Source: Promethearchaeota archaeon
Lineage (GTDB): Archaea; Asgardarchaeota; Heimdallarchaeia; Hodarchaeales; Hodarchaeaceae
Length of the DNA stretch: 64,000 nt
Reading direction: 5' to 3'
NCBI GenBank assembly: GCA_048938105.1
Contig: JBHLMN010000002.1
Coordinates: 1 to 64,000, forward strand
This document shows, piece by piece, positions 19,108 to 28,828 of this stretch. The notes beneath the pieces were generated by a model. That model did no database searches and was not told the origin of the DNA. It saw only the letters and a list, made by a program, of their open reading frames with translations. Every line of letters begins with the position of its first letter. Positions within the stretch are counted from its first letter, which is position 1. A program made the translations under genes and the position numbers.

Positions 19108-19224
19108 TTTTTCAATAAGGACAGCTTGTCAATTAATCGATCTCATATGAAATTGACTTCCCTTATGTATACTATAAAAAAATATCAACTCAACTTTATT
19201 CAGAATACGCTGAAGGTTTTTCAG

Positions 19225-20955
19225 ATGACAAAAAAATCGTATTTTGTCCTTGGATGCTTTTTTCTAACCTTCTGTGGCAGTTTTTCTCCTGTCAGCGCCG
19301 TTGATTATACAATAATGGCACAAAATCTCCTTCTTGTAAGGGATTGGCCAAATGTCTCTTTGATTTATCCAAACAAGTTCCACACTCCCCCTGAAGTAGT
19401 CGAAGAATTAGAGCTCCTTAATGATACGGCCCCAGATATTATAGATCTCTTTACTATCGGTGATAGTATTGAAGGTCGGGCAATCTATTGTGTGAGAGTG
19501 ACTAATGAACAAAATCCCCTCCCTAAAGCAGGTACGATGATTGTTTCCCATCAACATTCACGTGAACAGATAACAGTTGAAGCTGCACTTCGATTTCTCC
19601 ATCGGTTGGTAAATAACTACGGAACACATGAAGAAATCACTCAGTACATTGATTCTGAAGAAATTTTTGTCATTCCTGACGTTAATCCCGATGGTTTGCA
19701 CTATGTGCTTGGAAATGAAACCCTTCCGAGTGATTATTGGTTACGGAAGAATTTACGTCAGTTCGACGATGACAATGATGGTGAATTCGATGAAGATCCC
19801 GCTGAAGATGTGAATGGAGATGGAATTGTCTCAGGATATGATGTCTATAAAAAATCAGGAGGCGAATGGGTGTTCCAATATACGTATTTTGAGGGTAATG
19901 ACTCTGATGGCGATGGTTTCATCAATGAGGATCCTCGTGGAGGTGTTGATTTAAATCGGAATTTTGGCTACCGTTGGAACGACTCGACTTGTACAACTGG
20001 TTCTACAGGCAATACATTAGATGAGTGTTTTCCAGGAACTTCTGCATTCTCTGAACCAGAAACCCAGGCTTATTGTGATTTTGTGAAAGATAAGTCTTTT
20101 GCTATGGCCATCTCGCTCCATTCAGGAATTAATGCAACTTATTTTCCTTGGGCATCAGAGGTTGCCGTTTGGCCTGAACCATTCTTGTATACTGAGATCT
20201 ATAATGATCTAAAAGACATCTTACCCTACAGATTCTTTGGTGAAGGCTACCTGGGGTCTCGAGCTAAAGCCACGATAGCCACGGTTGATTATACCAGTGC
20301 TGGTTCTTGGGATGATTGGATGTATGCAGAACAGGGTTGTGTTGTACCAATGACTTTCGAAATCTATCATAATGGATCCTATGTAGATTTCATTGAGGTT
20401 GAATCAGAGAATAACACGCATCTGATTGAACGGTGGGATTGTATCTACGAATATTTTGCCCCTACAGAAGCTGGAAAGAATTTTGACGCTTTATGGAGAG
20501 ATATTCAACCCGCATTTGATTATTGGTTAAAAAATACCCCTCGCTTAGTACTCAACGTTAAATCTGTCACAGGAGGTAATACAGAAGGTGATTCGGTCAC
20601 TGTAAAACTTGATGTGCAGAATCTGAGTCCACGACTATCTACTGTTACCGATTTGAATGTTCTTAGGGATAATTTCACTTCTGTGCTTTATCATGGTTCA
20701 TCTGTAACAATATCGGCTATAGAAGCTGCTGATAGCGATAGCAAATCCTTTACCTTTAAGTTAGAAGATTCACTTTCCCCTAATACAAATATTACTTTTC
20801 TAATTGGCAATGACTACGTTGGTTACTCAAAAATTAGTTTTCAGGGAAATCAGATCACAGAAAGTACTCCTGTAAATATTATTATCGTTTTAGTTGCAAT
20901 TCCAATTCTTATTACTCTAAAAACGATTTCATGCGAAAATAAACGCAAAAGATAA
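19225..20955 (+). CDS. Secreted, membrane-anchored M14 zinc carboxypeptidase
   Basis: Signal peptide MTKKSYFVLG...VSA; HSRE (HxxE), NPDG, GVDLNRNF, SEPET, ISLHSG and TFEI. Asp-rich Ca-binding-like loops DDDNDGEFDED, DVNGDG and DSDGDG. C-terminal TM plus basic tail. Start moved from 19126 to the ATG at 19225. Confidence 0.9.
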   Translation: MTKKSYFVLGCFFLTFCGSFSPVSAVDYTIMAQNLLLVRDWPNVSLIYPNKFHTPPEVVEELELLNDTAPDIIDLFTIGDSIEGRAIYCVRVTNEQNPLPKAGTMIVSHQHSREQITVEAALRFLHRLVNNYGTHEEITQYIDSEEIFVIPDVNPDGLHYVLGNETLPSDYWLRKNLRQFDDDNDGEFDEDPAEDVNGDGIVSGYDVYKKSGGEWVFQYTYFEGNDSDGDGFINEDPRGGVDLNRNFGYRWNDSTCTTGSTGNTLDECFPGTSAFSEPETQAYCDFVKDKSFAMAISLHSGINATYFPWASEVAVWPEPFLYTEIYNDLKDILPYRFFGEGYLGSRAKATIATVDYTSAGSWDDWMYAEQGCVVPMTFEIYHNGSYVDFIEVESENNTHLIERWDCIYEYFAPTEAGKNFDALWRDIQPAFDYWLKNTPRLVLNVKSVTGGNTEGDSVTVKLDVQNLSPRLSTVTDLNVLRDNFTSVLYHGSSVTISAIEAADSDSKSFTFKLEDSLSPNTNITFLIGNDYVGYSKISFQGNQITESTPVNIIIVLVAIPILITLKTISCENKRKR

Positions 20956-21098: not shown

Positions 21099-21410
21099 AT
21101 GAGGTATAATATGGAAGGTAGAAGTGTCTTTGTATTTATTCTATCAGTTCTTGTGTTTATTCTAATTTTGTCTGGAGTGGGTGCCCTCGTGTTCCATGTG
21201 ATAAATTATGATGTCCCTATTTATATGTTCGAAGAAGAAACGATTGGTAACGAAACCTTTGCAGAAGTCGTTTATAGTGAAGCCTATATCGGGAAACGTG
21301 ATACTAATACTTTTCTTGAGATTTTAGCGTTAATGATTTTATCCCTCTCAATTTTTTATGCGGGGTTGTTGAATTATTTAAAGACACCGAGGTTACGAAG
21401 GAAAGAATAG
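21099..21410 (+). CDS. Small two-TM membrane protein
   Basis: Two hydrophobic helices and a basic C-terminus. Confidence 0.7.
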   Translation: MRYNMEGRSVFVFILSVLVFILILSGVGALVFHVINYDVPIYMFEEETIGNETFAEVVYSEAYIGKRDTNTFLEILALMILSLSIFYAGLLNYLKTPRLRRKE

Positions 21411-21490
21411 CAACTCATTCGAATGGATTTTTACTATTGAGTTTAAGAATCAATCAATAAACTCTCTATAGCCAGTTAATTAGATAAAAA

Positions 21491-21612
21491 AAAACTAGGA
21501 TTAAATCCCATAGAATTTGATTGAGAACAGAAGACACAATATATACTCCAAATTCCCCTAGAAGGGGGCTATATTACTTCATGCAGCCTCAACAATGATT
21601 ATGGCTTTATCT
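21491..21612. repeat. Degenerate direct repeat, copy A (decayed 3' end of the 27391 gene)
   Basis: Aligns at roughly 80% identity by eye with 27380-27502, including the exact 22-mer ACTCCAAATTCCCCTAGAAGGG. Confidence 0.85.
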
Positions 21613-22044: not shown

Positions 22045-23139
22045 GTGGAGAAGATATACGAATTAGATTGTGCTATTTGGGAAATTACGCTTGCATGTAA
22101 TATGAACTGCAAGCACTGTGGATCTAGTGCTGGTATAGCGAGAGAAAATGAGTTAAATACGAAAGAAAGCTATATATTATGTGAAGCACTTGCAGAAACA
22201 AAATGTAATGTAGTTAGTCTTATGGGTGGGGAACCTTTTGTTCGTAAAGATTGGCATTTAATAGCAGAATGTATAAAAGACTTGGGAATGGACTTAGCAC
22301 TTGTATCAAATGGATTGTTGATACCTAGAGAGATTGATATAATCGACCGTTTAGAAACACTTGTCGTTGGTATTTCTTTAGATGGAATGGAAAAAAATCA
22401 CGACATGATCAGAAAAAAGGGGGCTTATAAATCGGCTATAAAAGCAATCGATCTTTTAACAGAGCGTAATATTCAAACTACGGTCATTACCACTTTAACA
22501 AAAGAAAATTTTTTTGATCTACCAAAACTCAGAAACATCTTGATTGATAAAAACGTTAATTGGCAAATTCAAGTGGGGGTACCTTTTGGTAACCTTGACC
22601 CCAATCTAGTTATCGATAAAGAAGAATATTACGCCTCTGCAATGTTCATTGCATCTGAGAGTATTAAAAATAAATTTGAAGACATGCCTGTTGTTGGTGC
22701 TCATTGTTATGGTTATAACTCTTATTTACTACCGACTGGTAAAAAATGGTCAGGATGCACAGCAGGAATCTCTACTGTCGGTATAACCTCCGATGGATCA
22801 ATAGTAGGGTGTCTTTCTATGGGAAATGACCAATTTCTGGAAGGGAATGTCAGAAACCTTAGTTTTATTGATATCTGGGAGAATCCCAATTCTTTTTCGT
22901 ATAATCGTCATTTTAACAAAAAAGATTTGGGAAAAAACTGTCAAGGCTGTTATTATGGAAGTTCATGTAAAGGAGGATGTAATTCAGTATCTTTTCATCT
23001 AACAGGTCAATTTCATAACTCCCCCCTTTGTTTGAGACGAATTGAGGAAACAATCTTGGATGTTAAACTCTCAAAAAGGGAAAAAATTGCCCATTTATTT
23101 TTCAAAAGTAAAAATGAGATAAAAAAATGGCCAAATTGA
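22045..23139 (+). CDS. Radical SAM/SPASM peptide or protein maturase, splicease (PlpX)-like
   Basis: WEITLACNMNCKHCGSSAG..RENEL, GGEP and WQIQ...GN; SPASM WSGCTAG...GITSDGSIVGCLS and CQGC...CKGGC...C. Confidence 0.88.
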   Translation: MEKIYELDCAIWEITLACNMNCKHCGSSAGIARENELNTKESYILCEALAETKCNVVSLMGGEPFVRKDWHLIAECIKDLGMDLALVSNGLLIPREIDIIDRLETLVVGISLDGMEKNHDMIRKKGAYKSAIKAIDLLTERNIQTTVITTLTKENFFDLPKLRNILIDKNVNWQIQVGVPFGNLDPNLVIDKEEYYASAMFIASESIKNKFEDMPVVGAHCYGYNSYLLPTGKKWSGCTAGISTVGITSDGSIVGCLSMGNDQFLEGNVRNLSFIDIWENPNSFSYNRHFNKKDLGKNCQGCYYGSSCKGGCNSVSFHLTGQFHNSPLCLRRIEETILDVKLSKREKIAHLFFKSKNEIKKWPN

Positions 23140-24413
23140 ATTTAGGTTGTGGATTATACTACAAACCTGGATATGTTAATATTGATAGATATGAAGAATC
23201 TATTAGCGATATGAGAGCAGATATTCGTCACTTACCATATAATAATAACAGTGTTGAGGAAATTGAAGCATCACATGTATTAGAACATTTTGATAGCATA
23301 ATACTTCCCTATTTATTATCAGAGTGGTATAGAATATTGAAACCACAAGGTGAATTACATATAGAAACCCCTCATTTAGTTAATACAGTAAAGAAGCTAC
23401 GATTTAGGCGCTACTCAAATCAGAAGAACACCTTACGATTTCTTTTTGGGATTGATCTTCCAGGCAATGTCCATAAATTTGGTTTTACCCCTTCTTTTCT
23501 GAAAAAAACATTGGAGCTAGTTGGATTTAGCAAAACAGAAGAAGAAAAACCTCTAAGTTTTAGAACAGAGAAAAGCTTTCGTATCAAAGCAGTGAAACCT
23601 GTGGGGGGGTCATTTTTTGATAAAACTCTTTTTCTTACAAGATTTCGCTGGAAAATACTGACTAAATTTCGAACCACTGATATATTGCTCTTAGAAGCTA
23701 TTGAAAATAATTGTATTGATCCATTAAATAAAATACTTCCAGAAAATGTTAAATTCTTCTTTGATACTGAAACAATAATATCTACATGTGCTAATTTCGC
23801 GTTGTTAAATCCAAAAGTAGCTAAAATCTTTCTCTCATTATTTCCAAAAGAAAAATGCAAAGAAATAAATACAGAAGTATTTGACTTCATGCAATCACAG
23901 AATTTCCCCTCTCTTTTCCTTGCTAATTGGGCCAAATGGAAGAAAAGACCTAAAGATCATATTGTTTCTATTACAAGGTTTCATATGCATTGGTCAAAGA
24001 AAATAGAACGTTTAATGGCCACAAAAAATAATTTTGAAGAAAATTTCAGTTATTTATTGTCATTACAAAAAAAAGAAGTAGGGTATTTTTCCTCAGAAGT
24101 TTTGAACCTTCATTCAATAAAATTAACGAATCAAGGAATTAAATCCTTTTCAAAAAATAATCTTAAAAAAGCAAATCAAATGTTCTTGGACGCGTTAAAA
24201 TATGATCCAACAAATGGACTCACGTATTGGAATCTTGCTAGGCTTTCTATCCAATTAAATGAAAGTAATGAAAAAATAAAACAATATTATATGTTAGCAG
24301 CGACGAATATTGGTAATAAAAAAAGAAAAAAAGACATTAAACAGGAAATGAGGGATTATTTGAGGAATGAAGGTAACTTCAACAAAATAGATCCAATACA
24401 GATACGACTTTAG
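23127..24413 (+). CDS. Class I SAM-dependent methyltransferase-like protein with C-terminal TPR
   Basis: KLNLGCG....GYVNID, LPY..NSVEEI.ASHVLEH, W.RILKP.G; C-terminal TPR (ALKYDPTNGLTYWNLA). Overlaps the rSAM stop. Confidence 0.85.
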   Translation: MAKLNLGCGLYYKPGYVNIDRYEESISDMRADIRHLPYNNNSVEEIEASHVLEHFDSIILPYLLSEWYRILKPQGELHIETPHLVNTVKKLRFRRYSNQKNTLRFLFGIDLPGNVHKFGFTPSFLKKTLELVGFSKTEEEKPLSFRTEKSFRIKAVKPVGGSFFDKTLFLTRFRWKILTKFRTTDILLLEAIENNCIDPLNKILPENVKFFFDTETIISTCANFALLNPKVAKIFLSLFPKEKCKEINTEVFDFMQSQNFPSLFLANWAKWKKRPKDHIVSITRFHMHWSKKIERLMATKNNFEENFSYLLSLQKKEVGYFSSEVLNLHSIKLTNQGIKSFSKNNLKKANQMFLDALKYDPTNGLTYWNLARLSIQLNESNEKIKQYYMLAATNIGNKKRKKDIKQEMRDYLRNEGNFNKIDPIQIRL

Positions 24414-24528
24414 ATAAATCAATTATAAGAAGATGATATATATGCAATGAAAGGTTTAAAAGACTTACAACCTATAAGTCCTAATAAGAACCTCTCAGAT
24501 AAATTAGTAGCTTGCAAGGCGAATATAT

Positions 24529-25023
24529 TTGAATACAGAAAAATTTCATGAAATTGGAGGAATGTTAAACACCGATGTTTCAAGCTTAAAACAAAAGAAA
24601 AGCAGTTTCCTTACAAAGCCAGTGTATTTTCTGATTCAATTTTTGATTTATGAAATTTCCTTATTACTCGGTTTATCAATCGCTTCCACTCAAGATAAAG
24701 CTACATATCCTATAACGTCACCTAATTCCTTATTTCTAATACCTTATTCATTCTTCATGCTTCTTCCAATACATGGAGTAAATGGAATCATTACAATACC
24801 AGGAAAGAGAAGATTTGGATTTAGTTACAAAATTAGAATAACTGTCTTTTTAATGAATTTACTAATATCAATGTATGCAGTTAGTTTGATCCTAGGGACT
24901 GTGTCTCCTGGAGCTGAAGGTGTAATGTATGGAGTATTTGACAGATCATCATTACTTCACAGAGGAGATCACAACAATAAGATTTGGATAAATTTTGTCT
25001 CATCCGATGATATTACCTTATAA
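24529..25023 (+). CDS. Membrane protein with a C-terminal GVMYGVF motif; candidate substrate of the radical SAM enzyme
   Basis: Two to three TM segments, then TVSPGAEGVMYGVFD. TTG start. Confidence 0.7.
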   Translation: MNTEKFHEIGGMLNTDVSSLKQKKSSFLTKPVYFLIQFLIYEISLLLGLSIASTQDKATYPITSPNSLFLIPYSFFMLLPIHGVNGIITIPGKRRFGFSYKIRITVFLMNLLISMYAVSLILGTVSPGAEGVMYGVFDRSSLLHRGDHNNKIWINFVSSDDITL

Positions 25024-25050: not shown

Positions 25051-26994
25051 TTAACGTAACCTTTTGGAGTATTTAAACCCTATTGCAGGTATTAAAATAA
25101 CAATTGGTAATAAACTAAAGAACAAGTAGAGGCTATTTCTGGTTTTAAGGTCAGGAGGAAACCTAAACCCTGGGTACATCGCTCGTGGATCTTTAGGATT
25201 CATGCCAAAGATAGGGTGCATATGGTTGATACCTATCTCTTGATAACCCCATTCGTATCCACAGAGAATCTTACCCCAATTAGATGTATTGATTTCCTCA
25301 GCTTGGGTTTGAATACCCATCAGAGAATCAATAAAGTCGTAGGTACCATCCCTAAGACCTGTAACAGCAGTTGTGGCCTCTTTCACCACTTTGTAAGTGA
25401 CTGGAGATAGACTAGGAGTTGGTATCCAGTTACCACCACCTACCATAGTAGGATCATGACCCATGACTGCTGGATCGTACTCTGGATTGGTTTTGATGAC
25501 GATGGTATCAGAGTCTGGGAACGAATCAAACATGTATTGGCCACAACCAATTGGAGCGTATTTGGTATTGGTGTCATCAGTCTTCCATTCCGCGAAGGGG
25601 ACTTTTGACATTTGAGCTTTTTGCAAAATATCGAGCTGGAATAAGACAGTTTCCACGTAAGGATAGAACTTAGGCAAGGTGAACGTGATTTCCATATCGC
25701 CAATTTTCTTAATATTACTAGCATTACCCACGATATTGAGTAATGTACCTCGGCTTGGACATCCGACATCTTTGTCTAAAGCAGCCTGATAGGAAAAGTA
25801 AACGTCATCAGCAGTCACAGCGGTGCCATCACTCCATTTAACTCCGTCTCGGATTGTAACTACCCATTCTAAGTAGTCATCACTGTGTGTCCATTTTTCA
25901 GCTAACCATGGGATTGCATGAGTAATATTGTATTCGCCTCTTCTCCTAGAGAGTTCACAGAAGATGTTATCAAGGATGATAAGGTCGTAATAACTGCTGG
26001 ATTCCAGTGGATTAAGATCAATATAGTCTCCAGGTTGAGCAATAACAGCCGAGGTTTGGCCAGGGATGGTTATGTTCCCAAGGTTTTGTTTAAATCCATA
26101 TAAGAGATCAAATCCTTTAACATTTATATCCATGCCAAAAACTAGAATTTCCTGCCAAATGATAGCAGTAGGTACTTGATCATAGCACCATTGCTGATAT
26201 TCTTTCAGGAGCTTCACTCGTTCGATGGGGTCAGGTTCAGCATAAATATCGGTCCATAACGCAGTCACATTCGGATATGCTTTATCTGCCCATTTACCAG
26301 AGGTAGGAGCACCATCCTCTATCCAGTAACAATTGCTTGATGGAGGGTAGCACGTTTTATCGTAATATTCTTTGTATGTCGGGTCAGGGGAAGCATTGCA
26401 GCCAACGAAAAACATGTCGTACCCACCATGCTCATAGTTATAGCCAGTACCGACTGGATCAAGGAAGAGACGGGGCATAATGATGTTCCAGTTCCACCAC
26501 TTTAAGTTTGTATCAATTCCAACATTGTTTAATGAATAGGAGATTAGTGATGCGCTGGCGCTGTTAGTAGTTGGGACAATTAGGGTCATTTTGAAATAAG
26601 GTACATTTGTGTGGGTTGTGTTGGTCCCATCAGCAGCTTCGTCATAAATTAGACCGAAAACATCTTTCAAAAGTTCTGCAGCCTTTTCAGGACTGTACTC
26701 TCTGGATTTGATAGTTGGTTCATATACACCTTCGAAGTTCACCCCGATAGGTGAGGGAATCGCTACAGCGTATTCCATATATATGTCATCAATGATCGTC
26801 TCACGGGGAATACAATAGTCTATTGCTTGACGTATTTTTTGGCGATCTTCATGATTAAGGTTATCATAATACCAACCTAACCCCTGATCTTTCCATGGAG
26901 CTTTATCAGCAGCCTGGATTGGAACGGTCATGAATAAGAAGAGGAAATTAAATGTTAATAGAGCTAGAAGTAATAATGCCCTTCCTTTGTGCAT
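25051..26994 (-). CDS. ABC peptide/nickel (family 5) solute-binding protein, circularly permuted, with signal peptide and C-terminal anchor
   Basis: KIRQAIDYCIPR and YSPEKAAELL lie near the N-terminus. DLNP..LAEKW..IRDGVKWSDG..VTADDV.FS and PIGCGQY lie in the C-terminal half. Confidence 0.85.
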   Translation of the reverse strand: MHKGRALLLLALLTFNFLFLFMTVPIQAADKAPWKDQGLGWYYDNLNHEDRQKIRQAIDYCIPRETIIDDIYMEYAVAIPSPIGVNFEGVYEPTIKSREYSPEKAAELLKDVFGLIYDEAADGTNTTHTNVPYFKMTLIVPTTNSASASLISYSLNNVGIDTNLKWWNWNIIMPRLFLDPVGTGYNYEHGGYDMFFVGCNASPDPTYKEYYDKTCYPPSSNCYWIEDGAPTSGKWADKAYPNVTALWTDIYAEPDPIERVKLLKEYQQWCYDQVPTAIIWQEILVFGMDINVKGFDLLYGFKQNLGNITIPGQTSAVIAQPGDYIDLNPLESSSYYDLIILDNIFCELSRRRGEYNITHAIPWLAEKWTHSDDYLEWVVTIRDGVKWSDGTAVTADDVYFSYQAALDKDVGCPSRGTLLNIVGNASNIKKIGDMEITFTLPKFYPYVETVLFQLDILQKAQMSKVPFAEWKTDDTNTKYAPIGCGQYMFDSFPDSDTIVIKTNPEYDPAVMGHDPTMVGGGNWIPTPSLSPVTYKVVKEATTAVTGLRDGTYDFIDSLMGIQTQAEEINTSNWGKILCGYEWGYQEIGINHMHPIFGMNPKDPRAMYPGFRFPPDLKTRNSLYLFFSLLPIVILIPAIGFKYSKRLR

Positions 26995-27379
26995 CTTCCA
27001 TTTCCCACAGACAAATATTCATATCAAACTAAATTACTGAATGTACTCTAGTCTTATCTCCTTTTTATGATTTACTTATATGAAGAACTCCTGACACTTT
27101 TTAAAGAAAAACAGGAGAAAGTTAAATATGTACTATAATATGCTTGATTGGGCTTATCAGCATTAGTTTTTCGTAATCAGAGATGAATTAAATGAAAAAC
27201 TATCAAAACTCTTTTGATCAGATAAAATAAATTGATTTTTCACCGTTAGAACCCTTCTTTATAAATAATTCAACTGCATGAAAAAAATGTAAAGTATAAT
27301 GAATTTAATGGAAGAGTTTTTTAATAATAAGCTCTATCTGATGATTTTCCACTGGATAAACCAATTAAGCCAGTAAAAG

Positions 27380-27502
27380 AAAACTAGGAGTTAATCCCAT
27401 AGAATCTGATCGAGAACTGAAGATGCAATATTAACTCCAAATTCCCCTAGAAGGGAGCCTAAATTACTTCGTGCTGTCCCACCAATATGTAAGACTTTAT
27501 CT
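27380..27502. repeat. Degenerate direct repeat, copy B (intact 3' end of the 27391 gene)
   Basis: Partner of 21491-21612, in the same orientation. Confidence 0.85.
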
Positions 27503-28071
27503 TTCTGAGCAATTATTATACCTTCTACTGGATCGATCTGTACTAGTTTTTCTTCTCCTTCTCGGACTGAGATCTGTTTCTTGTGAATGAGAACGAATTT
27601 ATTCTCTTCCTTAGATCCGATAAGAAGAAAATTCCTGCGGCCAAAAATAATATGTCCACACTCTTCATCTGTCTTACCAAATGATATGTTCATATGAGAG
27701 TCTGGGTCTTCTATTCGTTTTTTAAATTTTGAAATTATTGCTTGAGCTTGATTTCTTAATTCTTGAGTCTCTTCTCCATTAAGGGTACTCTTTGTGAGAA
27801 AATCTTCTAGTTTAATGAGCGGAAAGCCGAGGATGACTAAATTTGTACCTGAAAAGGTAGTAGTGTTTCCCACGCTTCCAGAGTCCGTGTAGATTATTGC
27901 ATCAACTACTACTTCAATACGTCCTAGAATTACGATTCCATCAGTTTCATCAGTTATGATTTCCAAAATTTTGGGCTGTTTAATAAGCGTGACTTTATAA
28001 AAAGGGGTGTAGAGAATTTCAGGTTTTCCGTGCCAATCAAAAATTTCATCTTTTAGTTGAATTGTTTTCAT
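27391..28071 (-). CDS. Hypothetical protein (226 aa), co-transcribed with the ArsR-type regulator
   Basis: The ATG at 28071 (MKTIQLKDE) lies just after the upstream stop. The longer 28191 start overlaps the regulator gene and is unlikely. Confidence 0.75.
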   Translation of the reverse strand: MKTIQLKDEIFDWHGKPEILYTPFYKVTLIKQPKILEIITDETDGIVILGRIEVVVDAIIYTDSGSVGNTTTFSGTNLVILGFPLIKLEDFLTKSTLNGEETQELRNQAQAIISKFKKRIEDPDSHMNISFGKTDEECGHIIFGRRNFLLIGSKEENKFVLIHKKQISVREGEEKLVQIDPVEGIIIAQKDKVLHIGGTARSNLGSLLGEFGVNIASSVLDQILWD

Positions 28072-28075
28072 CGCC

Positions 28076-28828
28076 CTATTCTTCCTCTTCAGGGAATTCG
28101 TCTTCCTCTTCTTCATCGGTAGAGTAGACGGGTATTGGAATCCTTTTCTTGGCTCGAGAATAGAGAAATTCCACCAATTTAAGTGCCTCACGTCCAGAGA
28201 ATGTTAGCATATATCTTTCCCGGACTCCTTCCTGTCGAACTAATCCTTCATCCTTGAGAATAGTAATATGGTGTTTGAAGTTGCCCCCACGTGTGTTTGT
28301 CTTTTCTGAAAGATCTGATTGACGAAGAGGTCTTTTTTCAAGCTCTTTAAGCATTCGAAGGCGAGTTTGGTCAGAGAGAGCTCCTATGATAGACGCTCCT
28401 TTCTGGAAAAATTCCTCTAATTCCTCCTCTGGGACAAAATATGGTTCTTTTCTTCTTCTTTTCCGCCCCCGTCGGTGAGTTGGAGGGGTTTGGAAGATAG
28501 AACCAACGGTACGATCAATAGTATCACCAATAGAGTCTAAAAGTCCTCCAATGTAGTGTTCAAATGAATCACTAAATCGTTTTCCCCAATCATCCCAACC
28601 CTCATCATCTATTCGGATGGCTATATCACCTCGTGGTTTTCTAGGAGGTCTTGGTGGTCTTGGTCTTCTTGGAGGGGGAAAATCTTCCTTTATATGACTG
28701 ATTTCCTCCTTTAAATCCCTCATCTGATCACGAAATTCCTGTTTCATTTCACGGAAAGATTCCTTAAGGTCATCAAAGGCCTCATCTTCATCTTGAGGTT
28801 CTTTAGTATCCTTATCCTCGTTATCCAT
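28076..28828 (-). CDS. ArsR-family winged-helix regulator with acidic and Pro/Arg-rich N-terminal regions
   Basis: ALSDQTRLRMLKEL...QSDLS...GGNFKHHITILKDEGLV...YMLTFSGR; low-complexity PPPRRPRPPRPPRKPR. Confidence 0.82.
   Translation of the reverse strand: MDNEDKDTKEPQDEDEAFDDLKESFREMKQEFRDQMRDLKEEISHIKEDFPPPRRPRPPRPPRKPRGDIAIRIDDEGWDDWGKRFSDSFEHYIGGLLDSIGDTIDRTVGSIFQTPPTHRRGRKRRRKEPYFVPEEELEEFFQKGASIIGALSDQTRLRMLKELEKRPLRQSDLSEKTNTRGGNFKHHITILKDEGLVRQEGVRERYMLTFSGREALKLVEFLYSRAKKRIPIPVYSTDEEEEDEFPEEEE

Follow-up and report, generated by a model that had tools for sequence, protein, structure and literature searches.

The window analysed here is a 64,000-nucleotide stretch (positions 1 to 64,000, forward strand) of contig JBHLMN010000002.1, from a Promethearchaeota archaeon of the Hodarchaeaceae (GenBank assembly GCA_048938105.1). 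Between positions 22,045 and 25,023 it carries three genes, encoding a radical S-adenosylmethionine (SAM) enzyme with a SPASM domain, a class I methyltransferase with tetratricopeptide repeats (TPR) and a small membrane protein. These three genes are best explained as a protein-tail maturation cassette of a large uncharacterised family. Sequence comparison indicates that the membrane protein is very probably the substrate and predicts Tyr134 in its C-terminal tail as the site at which the radical SAM enzyme acts. The closest studied relatives of the enzyme are bacterial spliceases, which remove a tyrosine from a peptide backbone and so create groups that block proteases. Tyramine splicing at this tyrosine is the best single hypothesis for the chemistry, held with modest confidence. 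A first-pass annotation of the DNA had pointed to a candidate splicease system at these positions. Its observation is confirmed, all three open reading frames (ORFs) included, each check it suggested that computation allows gave the outcome it predicted, and its interpretation is partly supported; tyramine loss, a ketoamide product, surface display and protease inhibition are what we infer from the data below.

A proposed tail-maturation cassette and its predicted substrate family

The radical SAM gene (22045..23139, plus strand) encodes 364 residues that match Pfam Radical_SAM (73 bits) and SPASM (32 bits). The protein contains the motifs ..IWEITLACNMNCKHCGSSAGIARENEL.., ..NWQIQVGVPFGN.. and ..WSGCTAGISTVGITSDGSIVGCLS... 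The first-pass annotation had given the residues of these motifs correctly with a dot spacing off by one or two; the cluster at C18/C22/C25 is CX3CX2C and not C..C. Both this cluster and the full set of SPASM auxiliary-cluster cysteines are present. In a 15-member alignment, the three radical SAM cysteines and C221, C238, C256, C299, C302, C308, C312 and C329 are invariant. The methyltransferase-TPR gene (23127..24413, plus strand; 428 residues; Pfam Methyltransf_11) overlaps the end of the radical SAM gene by 13 nt. After a gap of 115 nt comes the gene of the predicted substrate (24529..25023, plus strand; 164 residues, TTG start). As had been reported, a separate PlpY or RiPP (ribosomally synthesised and post-translationally modified peptide) recognition element (RRE) gene was not seen: when six neighbouring proteins were scanned with Pfam and NCBIfam, neither a PqqD/RRE-like protein nor a Nif11/NHLP-type leader or PlpY domain was found.

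The substrate-like protein has three hydrophobic segments and matched no Pfam or NCBIfam family. Its tail (window positions 24904-24954, SPGAEGVMYGVFDRSSL) includes ..GVMYGVF. The core motif, M133-Y134-G135-V136-F137, occupies 24925..24939 on the plus strand, with Tyr134 at 24928-24930 and Met133 as the X residue in front of it. A second motif, Tyr60-Pro61 (24706..24711, plus strand; translation KATYPITS), directly follows the first hydrophobic segment. Among 36 members of the same motif type, which share a mean identity of 22%, the only invariant positions are Y60, P61 and Y134.

Altogether, 82 loci were examined, namely 79 genome loci and three loci from metagenomes or metagenome-assembled genomes (MAGs). 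Heimdall-, Loki-, Hel- and Hodarchaeota as well as Thermoplasmatota have homologues of the radical SAM enzyme at 55-89% identity, and the nearest genome locus belongs to a Hodarchaeota MAG (94% identity). The cassette is spread over Asgard archaea, Thermoplasmatota, other archaea and some bacteria. In most loci the radical SAM gene is flanked by one to five small substrate paralogs, usually together with the methyltransferase gene, and the gene order varies. The cultured Promethearchaeum syntrophicum MK-D1, for instance, carries the radical SAM gene, the methyltransferase gene and three tandem substrates. A hidden Markov model (HMM) iterated over all ORFs of the 82 loci gave a substrate family of 125 members adjoining radical SAM homologues. 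The first-pass annotation had looked to a Tyr-Gly pair conserved beside such genes: the tyrosine in the column of Tyr134 is found in 125/125 members, the glycine in about 66%. An association on this scale goes well beyond what chance would give. In public records, the proteins of this family are named 'hypothetical protein' and carry no Pfam domain.

Two motif types were distinguished. Type A, to which the window protein belongs, has the consensus x-Y-[G44 D6 N4 S2 ..]-[V50 ..]-[Y28 F22 ..]. Type B, found in Thor- and Lokiarchaeota, Thermoplasmatales and bacteria, reads Y-x-x-G-x-x-Y-[G35 S23 ..]-[T/S]-[I/V]-S-x-K-D-F. The motif types track the enzyme clades, Y-G-V-[Y/F] going with type A enzymes and Y-S-[ST] with the Loki clade. 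Run against 1.84 billion representative proteins, the type B profile retrieved 188 clusters only, all of 52-188 residues; no fused substrate form longer than 263 residues was found, which is weak evidence.

The genome of the window contains a second complete cassette, on contig C52 at about 486345-489337 of the minus strand (loci L115 and L117). There, the radical SAM gene (488321-489337, 343 residues) is followed by a methyltransferase-TPR gene (436 residues) and then by a substrate gene (486345-486761, 168 residues). The tail of this substrate, ..GVAYSVFKDSPQSL, has the core A-Y-S-V-F, with Ser and not Gly after the tyrosine. If C52 belongs to the same organism, as its place in an assembly reported as 7.25% contaminated suggests, one genome codes for a tail with X = Met and another with X = Ala. 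The sequencing runs listed are DNA only (sediment, mangrove and seawater metagenomes), mostly with small shares.

We found no description of the archaeal cassette family in the papers searched, in which Scott et al. 2022 (Chem 8:2659) was represented by the summaries given in other papers. That work, which mined PlpX-like radical SAM enzymes beside YG-rich precursors, is summarised as covering 189 bacterial genera (PMC10849128), and another paper mentions bacterial and archaeal genomes (PMC11626197).

Relation to the spliceases and possible chemistry at the core tyrosine

The three NCBIfam models that the first-pass annotation had singled out proved to be the three best matches of the window enzyme: TIGR03913 (196 bits), TIGR04103 (190 bits) and TIGR04133 (147 bits), followed by NirJ at 134 bits. 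TIGR04103 is the PlpX family, IPR026482 (PMC11002830). TIGR04103 and TIGR03913 were the top two models in 11/11 diverse members, that is the window enzyme and ten relatives. Their matches span the full length including the SPASM domain, and they lead heme-pathway, mycofactocin and crosslinking-maturase models by 20-75 bits, in most cases by about 40-70. With the heme-pathway models, the alignment is mainly limited to the N-terminal radical SAM core. Family members score about 165-237 bits with TIGR04103, 166-213 with TIGR03913 and 135-164 with TIGR04133. True TIGR04103 members reach 805-862 bits with their own model, for which the curated cut-off is 725 bits; the cut-offs of TIGR03913 and TIGR04133 are 592 (591.75) and 425 bits. 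No TIGR03913 member over the cut-off was found in 301 Desulfobacterota genomes, and one TIGR04133 member over the cut-off was found, in Bacteroides thetaiotaomicron.

A tree of 78 rows was computed by a quick IQ-TREE search, with true TIGR04103 genes, weaker cyanobacterial relatives and ten other SPASM proteins included. The cassette family formed its own 44-row clade (Shimodaira-Hasegawa-like approximate likelihood ratio test, SH-aLRT, 95), with the window enzyme inside a 17-row type A subclade. The true TIGR04103 genes and the cyanobacterial relatives formed another clade (support 99). Both clades share one side of a 98-supported split from the ten other SPASM rows, so that, as the first assignment demands, the enzyme does not cluster with non-splicease SPASM proteins. 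Because the two clades adjoin but are separate and the scores lie under the cut-offs, the window enzyme is, judged from its sequence, a neighbour of the spliceases and not a member. The 'PlpX-type' label first given to it therefore holds as far as nearest models and neighbouring clade go, and fails as a statement of membership, all three cut-offs being missed.

Some rows of the tree deserve separate mention. The type B loci L027, L028 and L035 (Thermoplasmata, Euryarchaeota) have two tandem radical SAM paralogs that fall into different family subclades. The enzymes of L062, L064 and L082 (Gastranaerophilales, an unclassified bacterium and Methanosarcinales) branch outside both the cassette and the PlpX clades. 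Of these three, L062 and L064 were scored with TIGR04103 and, at 237 bits, rank highest of the non-members; no substrate-like neighbour was recognised at any of these three loci.

The sequence around Tyr134 resembles known splice sites. At true TIGR04103 loci, Nif11-type precursors have x-Y-G-V-[V/I] at 22/25 YG sites, a few residues from the C-terminus, which agrees with the MYGV context of PlpA-type precursors invoked by the first-pass annotation. M-Y-G-V-F and the type A consensus share this Y-G-V-hydrophobic context.

A further pattern concerned the residue before the tyrosine. Position -1 was identical in only 4/106 same-locus paralog pairs against a shuffled mean of 15.0, with 0/2000 shuffles as low; the loci being related to one another, the shuffle test overstates independence, but the contrast of -1 with its neighbours is still striking. 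Indeed, at positions -4 to -2 and +1 to +5 same-locus paralogs were more alike than shuffled ones, as expected of tandem duplicates, and -1 was the only nearby position diversified among them beyond chance. Typical sets of -1 residues within one locus are L/E/D/R/M, L/E/D/R, R/M/D and L/D/K. Soluble multi-core relatives repeat a 16-residue core in which again the -1 residue varies (K/W/M, W/H/M, Y/R/Q). In spliceotides, the residue before the tyrosine becomes the side chain of the alpha-keto-beta-amino acid or ketoamide (PMC9811515).

Soluble substrates as a group range from 46 to 106 residues. Those designated P0350, P0382, P0383, P0379, P0322, P0323 and P0363 have a single leader helix with 2-5 cores of 16 residues in tandem (..YKAGT-x-YGTVSPKDF..); in P0363, two units of leader plus core are fused one after the other.

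Several observations weigh against tyramine splicing in this family. The window enzyme lies far under the cut-offs (190 vs 725 bits for TIGR04103, 196 vs 592 for TIGR03913, 147 vs 425 for TIGR04133) and its clade is separate from that of PlpX; the tree itself comes from a small outgroup sample and a quick search. Glycine follows the core tyrosine in 44/58 type A and 35/62 type B members, as compared to 25/25 sites of true PlpX loci, with D, N, S, A or Y as the other residues. The single MK-D1 locus has Y-N, Y-D and Y-G side by side, and the second cassette of the window genome has Y-S. Splicing does not account for the second invariant motif, Y-P. No spliceotide pathway is known to need a methyltransferase, and a ketoamide would give such an enzyme no obvious methyl acceptor. 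A complex prediction with the radical SAM enzyme, tail residues 118-164, SAM and three 4Fe-4S clusters, which gave scores of 0.05, 0.65 and 0.02, weighs neither way.

In the main rival, rather unlikely in our estimate, the same enzyme acts on the same substrate by another radical chemistry, such as a C-C or ether crosslink, epimerisation or side-chain cleavage, with the methyltransferase capping the product. Many radical SAM/SPASM maturases crosslink aromatic residues (PqqE, SuiB, triceptide enzymes). No splicease structure exists, and the nearest solved proteins by sequence are SkfB, PqqE, anSME, CteB and SuiB, of which PqqE, CteB and SuiB suit this alternative. The failure of splicease membership on score and clade and the dispensable glycine speak for it too. 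So do conserved positions beyond XYG: an aromatic residue at -6, V/T/S at +2, an aromatic residue or I/V at +3 and, in type B, K-D-F at +6 to +8. The partner of a crosslink would be a nearby residue, as in a triceptide-like cyclophane, or the conserved aromatic at -6 or +3; Y-[G/S]-[V/T] would formally fit the aromatic-X-X pattern of cyclophane maturases, which leaves such chemistry some probability. Yet crosslinking models score lower with the window enzyme (WgkB 110, StsB 98, DynA 74 vs 190-196 bits), and apart from the tyrosine no partner residue is invariant across both motif types. A crosslink would also leave the diversification of position -1 alone unexplained. The Y-G-V context fits real splice sites.

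Leader, predicted display, methyltransferase and surrounding locus

Besides the tyrosine motifs, the best-conserved part of the substrate family is an N-terminal helix of consensus KLxEIGxxLxVxxxDI. Residues 1-30 of the window protein (MNTEKFHEIGGMLNTDVSSL.., 24529..24618, plus strand) match this leader consensus in the family alignments, which supports the TTG start. Such a leader would form an extended N-region of the export signal, implying modification in the cytoplasm before export. Tyr60-Pro61 may be a second site of recognition or modification; in type B relatives, a Y(P) stands 6 residues before the core tyrosine. The soluble peptides of Helarchaeota (46-65 residues, L003) have neither helix nor anchor. 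Since GYP[F/Y] and a Y-G-V-Y tail are all that they retain of the family features, these two elements would make up the minimal substrate.

The tail of the window protein is predicted to lie outside, on account of its three hydrophobic segments, an odd number, and of a crude hydropathy profile with a K/R-rich N-terminus and second loop. Against this, most type A relatives show two segments in the same crude profile, which by parity would put the tail inside. On balance, display of the tail outside the cell is somewhat favoured.

Bacterial relatives come in two arrangements. In the first, the leader helix is followed by a lipoprotein signal peptide with its lipobox cysteine, a linker and the tyrosine tail. 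In the second, the leader helix is followed by a signal anchor, a Kunitz_BPTI domain (PF00014) and the tyrosine tail. PF00014 scores were 22, 56 and 52 bits, and in one case 19.9, just under the cut-off of 21. The Kunitz-type substrates (L044 4607-5011, L045 4460-4999, L059 4583-5011 and L061 4607-5011; P0343 and P0364) are encoded directly upstream of the radical SAM gene. Export is implied by the lipobox and equally by the Kunitz domain, which is rich in disulfides. The architecture of these proteins points to a modification made in the cytoplasm, to exposure on the exterior of the cell and to a role as protease inhibitors. Known spliceotides are protease inhibitors (PMC11626197), and protease inhibition is put forward here as a tentative role. 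The Kunitz-type substrates come from Smithellaceae, Syntrophus and Nitrospiraceae MAGs and have the tail YPVSKYG[G/A]V..RDF; L044 carries a second, stand-alone Kunitz gene (2503-2874).

The methyltransferase-TPR assignment of the first-pass annotation stood, by Pfam for the enzyme part and by fold match for the TPR. The AlphaFold2 model (predicted local distance difference test, pLDDT, 92) has a class I methyltransferase at residues 1-160, an all-alpha middle and a TPR at residues 322-418. With VIA-align, the model matched methyltransferases at Z up to 14.7 and TPR proteins at Z 13.6. In a 22-member alignment, GCG (the SAM-binding motif), D20, D28, E53-H54, E80, P82 and H116 are invariant. Foldseek and VIA-align gave no clue to the substrate, returning only generic class I methyltransferases and TPR proteins, and in the fold search the RiPP methyltransferases LahSb, CypM and CgnL ranked no higher than unrelated ones. 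A homologue is found in the flank of 60 out of about 80 loci, many of the remaining loci being truncated, while the four Kunitz-type loci have none within about 5 kb. For these two reasons, the methyltransferase seems to be a common partner, for tailoring or docking, that a locus can do without.

Roles could also be swapped or split, with the methyltransferase modifying the tail tyrosine, for example by O-methylation, and the radical SAM enzyme acting elsewhere, for example at Tyr-Pro, or with the TPR protein serving only as a chaperone or dock. We consider this improbable. There are two invariant motifs for two enzymes, catalytic-looking methyltransferase residues are invariant, and TPR domains bind peptide tails (fold matches to the TPRs of STI-1 and SPY). 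However, the Kunitz-type loci keep the radical SAM gene and the tyrosine tail without the methyltransferase, so the pairing of enzyme and tail is the constant one, and type B proteins have the Y(P) and the main tyrosine together in a single 16-residue core. That the adjacency is meaningless, the enzyme working on a small molecule or cofactor as NirJ or AhbD do beside an unrelated membrane protein, is very improbable: AhbD, NirJ and mycofactocin models do match it at 125-134 bits, but the heme-pathway models do so mainly over the N-terminal core, the three gene types co-occur in varying order across several archaeal and bacterial phyla, and enzyme clades track motif types.

With tyramine splicing as the preferred reaction, the cassette could work as follows. 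The small membrane protein would be the substrate, its N-terminal helix acting as a leader in the cytoplasm. The radical SAM/SPASM enzyme would act at the invariant Tyr134 of M-Y-G-V-F, the likeliest reaction being tyramine splicing as in the nearest studied relatives. The co-translated methyltransferase-TPR would methylate the substrate at some position, or dock it through the TPR, and the modified tail would end on the outer face of the membrane. If the residue before the tyrosine sets the side chain of the warhead, several paralogs would amount to a displayed panel of warheads, probably protease inhibitors. Taken as a whole, the idea that archaea (Asgard, Thermoplasmatota) and some anaerobic bacteria use a splicease-related enzyme to excise a tyrosine from the tails of membrane-anchored proteins before export, and so display a panel of gene-encoded ketoamide warheads with a specificity set by the -1 residue, is a possibility that we place a little short of even.

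If true, these would be the first archaeal spliceotides and the first cases in which splicing edits the backbone of integral membrane proteins, of lipoproteins and of Kunitz proteins, methylation being a coupled step. With splicing, backbone-edited proteins containing beta-amino acids would reach beyond bacterial secondary metabolism: the archaeal lineage closest to eukaryotes would have conserved them in its cell envelope, together with a built-in way to vary the side chain of the warhead. Protein engineering would gain leader-dependent spliceases that accept residues other than Gly at +1 and whole folded proteins. If the chemistry is another one, the family would represent a radical modification of a new kind, directed at tyrosine and with natural substrates in the hundreds. 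A cultured host, P. syntrophicum MK-D1, exists, and soluble substrates are available.

Two copies of a 98-nt direct repeat, 83% identical in a repeat search, flank a 5.8-kb block that holds the three cassette genes and the gene of a membrane-anchored family-5 solute (peptide)-binding protein (25051..26994, minus strand; Pfam SBP_bac_5). The left copy lies at 21472..21569; the right copy, at 27361..27458, overlaps the 3′ end of the ORF 27391-28191 (minus strand). The arrangement resembles what an insertion into the end of a gene would leave behind, and is consistent with acquisition as an inserted block. No integrase was seen within it. The left copy contains a remnant that reads ..SSVLNQILWD.

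The solute-binding protein is a doubtful part of the cassette. Its sole BLAST match among all loci is in the near-identical L004; in L001, too, a SBP_bac_5 gene stands before the cassette, but it is unrelated. The protein has a C-terminal transmembrane anchor, and its halves match profiles in swapped order, residues 50-295 corresponding to DppA positions 305-519 and residues 365-590 to Opp4A positions 83-296. No permease or ATPase genes adjoin it. On the outside, the block is adjoined by a gene for an M14 zinc carboxypeptidase (19126-20955, plus strand; Pfam 167 bits). This protein starts with a signal-like stretch, contains an insert rich in Asp and ends in a transmembrane anchor. The carboxypeptidase, a 103-residue membrane protein (21099-21410) and the solute-binding protein were considered as cassette parts and not counted as such, because they are not recurrent neighbours of the cassette across loci.

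Comparison with known systems

The PlpX/PlpY/PlpA and PcpXYA systems of Pleurocapsa (PMC11002830, PMC11414181, PMC9811515) have in common with this family the N-terminal radical SAM signature AxWExTLxCNxxCxHCGSxAG..R..EL. Both have an x-Y-G-V-hydrophobic site near the C-terminus, a variable X and several substrate genes or cores per locus. In contrast to PlpX-type systems, the present family has neither a Nif11/NHLP leader nor PlpY, the Gly at +1 is dispensable and a methyltransferase-TPR is usual. Its predicted substrates include membrane proteins, lipoproteins or Kunitz proteins, while mainly archaea are its hosts. Cyanobacterial PlpX relatives (430-615 bits; L096 1701-2177, L097 1747-2211, L099-L103) adjoin yet other YG substrates: one protein repeats APMYGMP seven times, another contains QPVYGAP, and in the lipoproteins the lipobox LSAC is directly followed by YGTPPP.

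The binary (type II) spliceases of Rheinheimera, RhaX/RhaA, RcsX and RasX (PMC11414181, PMC11626197), resemble the cassette in having two components without a Y protein (PMC11414181). There, an alpha-helix of the leader is proposed to activate the enzyme, and an N-terminal helix is conserved here, although it is missing from the soluble Helarchaeota peptides. The Rheinheimera products are protease inhibitors, a theme matched by the Kunitz fusions among the present relatives. RcsA was not spliced at its DYG motif (PMC11626197), yet D is a frequent -1 residue in this family. These likenesses were drawn from published descriptions.

TIGR03913, the 'GDL motif peptide-associated radical SAM/SPASM maturase', is the equal-best HMM match of all members tested, each of them under the 592-bit cut-off. 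In the papers searched, we found no description of TIGR03913 chemistry and no confirmation that its enzymes are spliceases. The TIGR04133/TIGR04134 radical SAM/lipoprotein system likewise pairs a radical SAM/SPASM enzyme with exported Tyr-Gly proteins, an arrangement also seen in the cyanobacterial relatives with their YGTPPP lipoproteins. It differs in being the third to fifth best match, in the motif context Y-G-P-P/T-P-P and in having no methyltransferase.

Triceptide or three-residue cyclophane maturases also target an aromatic residue in a short repeated motif, and multi-core precursors occur here too. However, none of their models is among the 25 best NCBIfam matches of the window enzyme, and no crosslink partner is conserved across the motif types. 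Overall, with a radical SAM enzyme nearer to PlpX than to other SPASM families and with adjoining precursors that carry YG, the cassette can be described as a spliceotide-like system in the broad sense.

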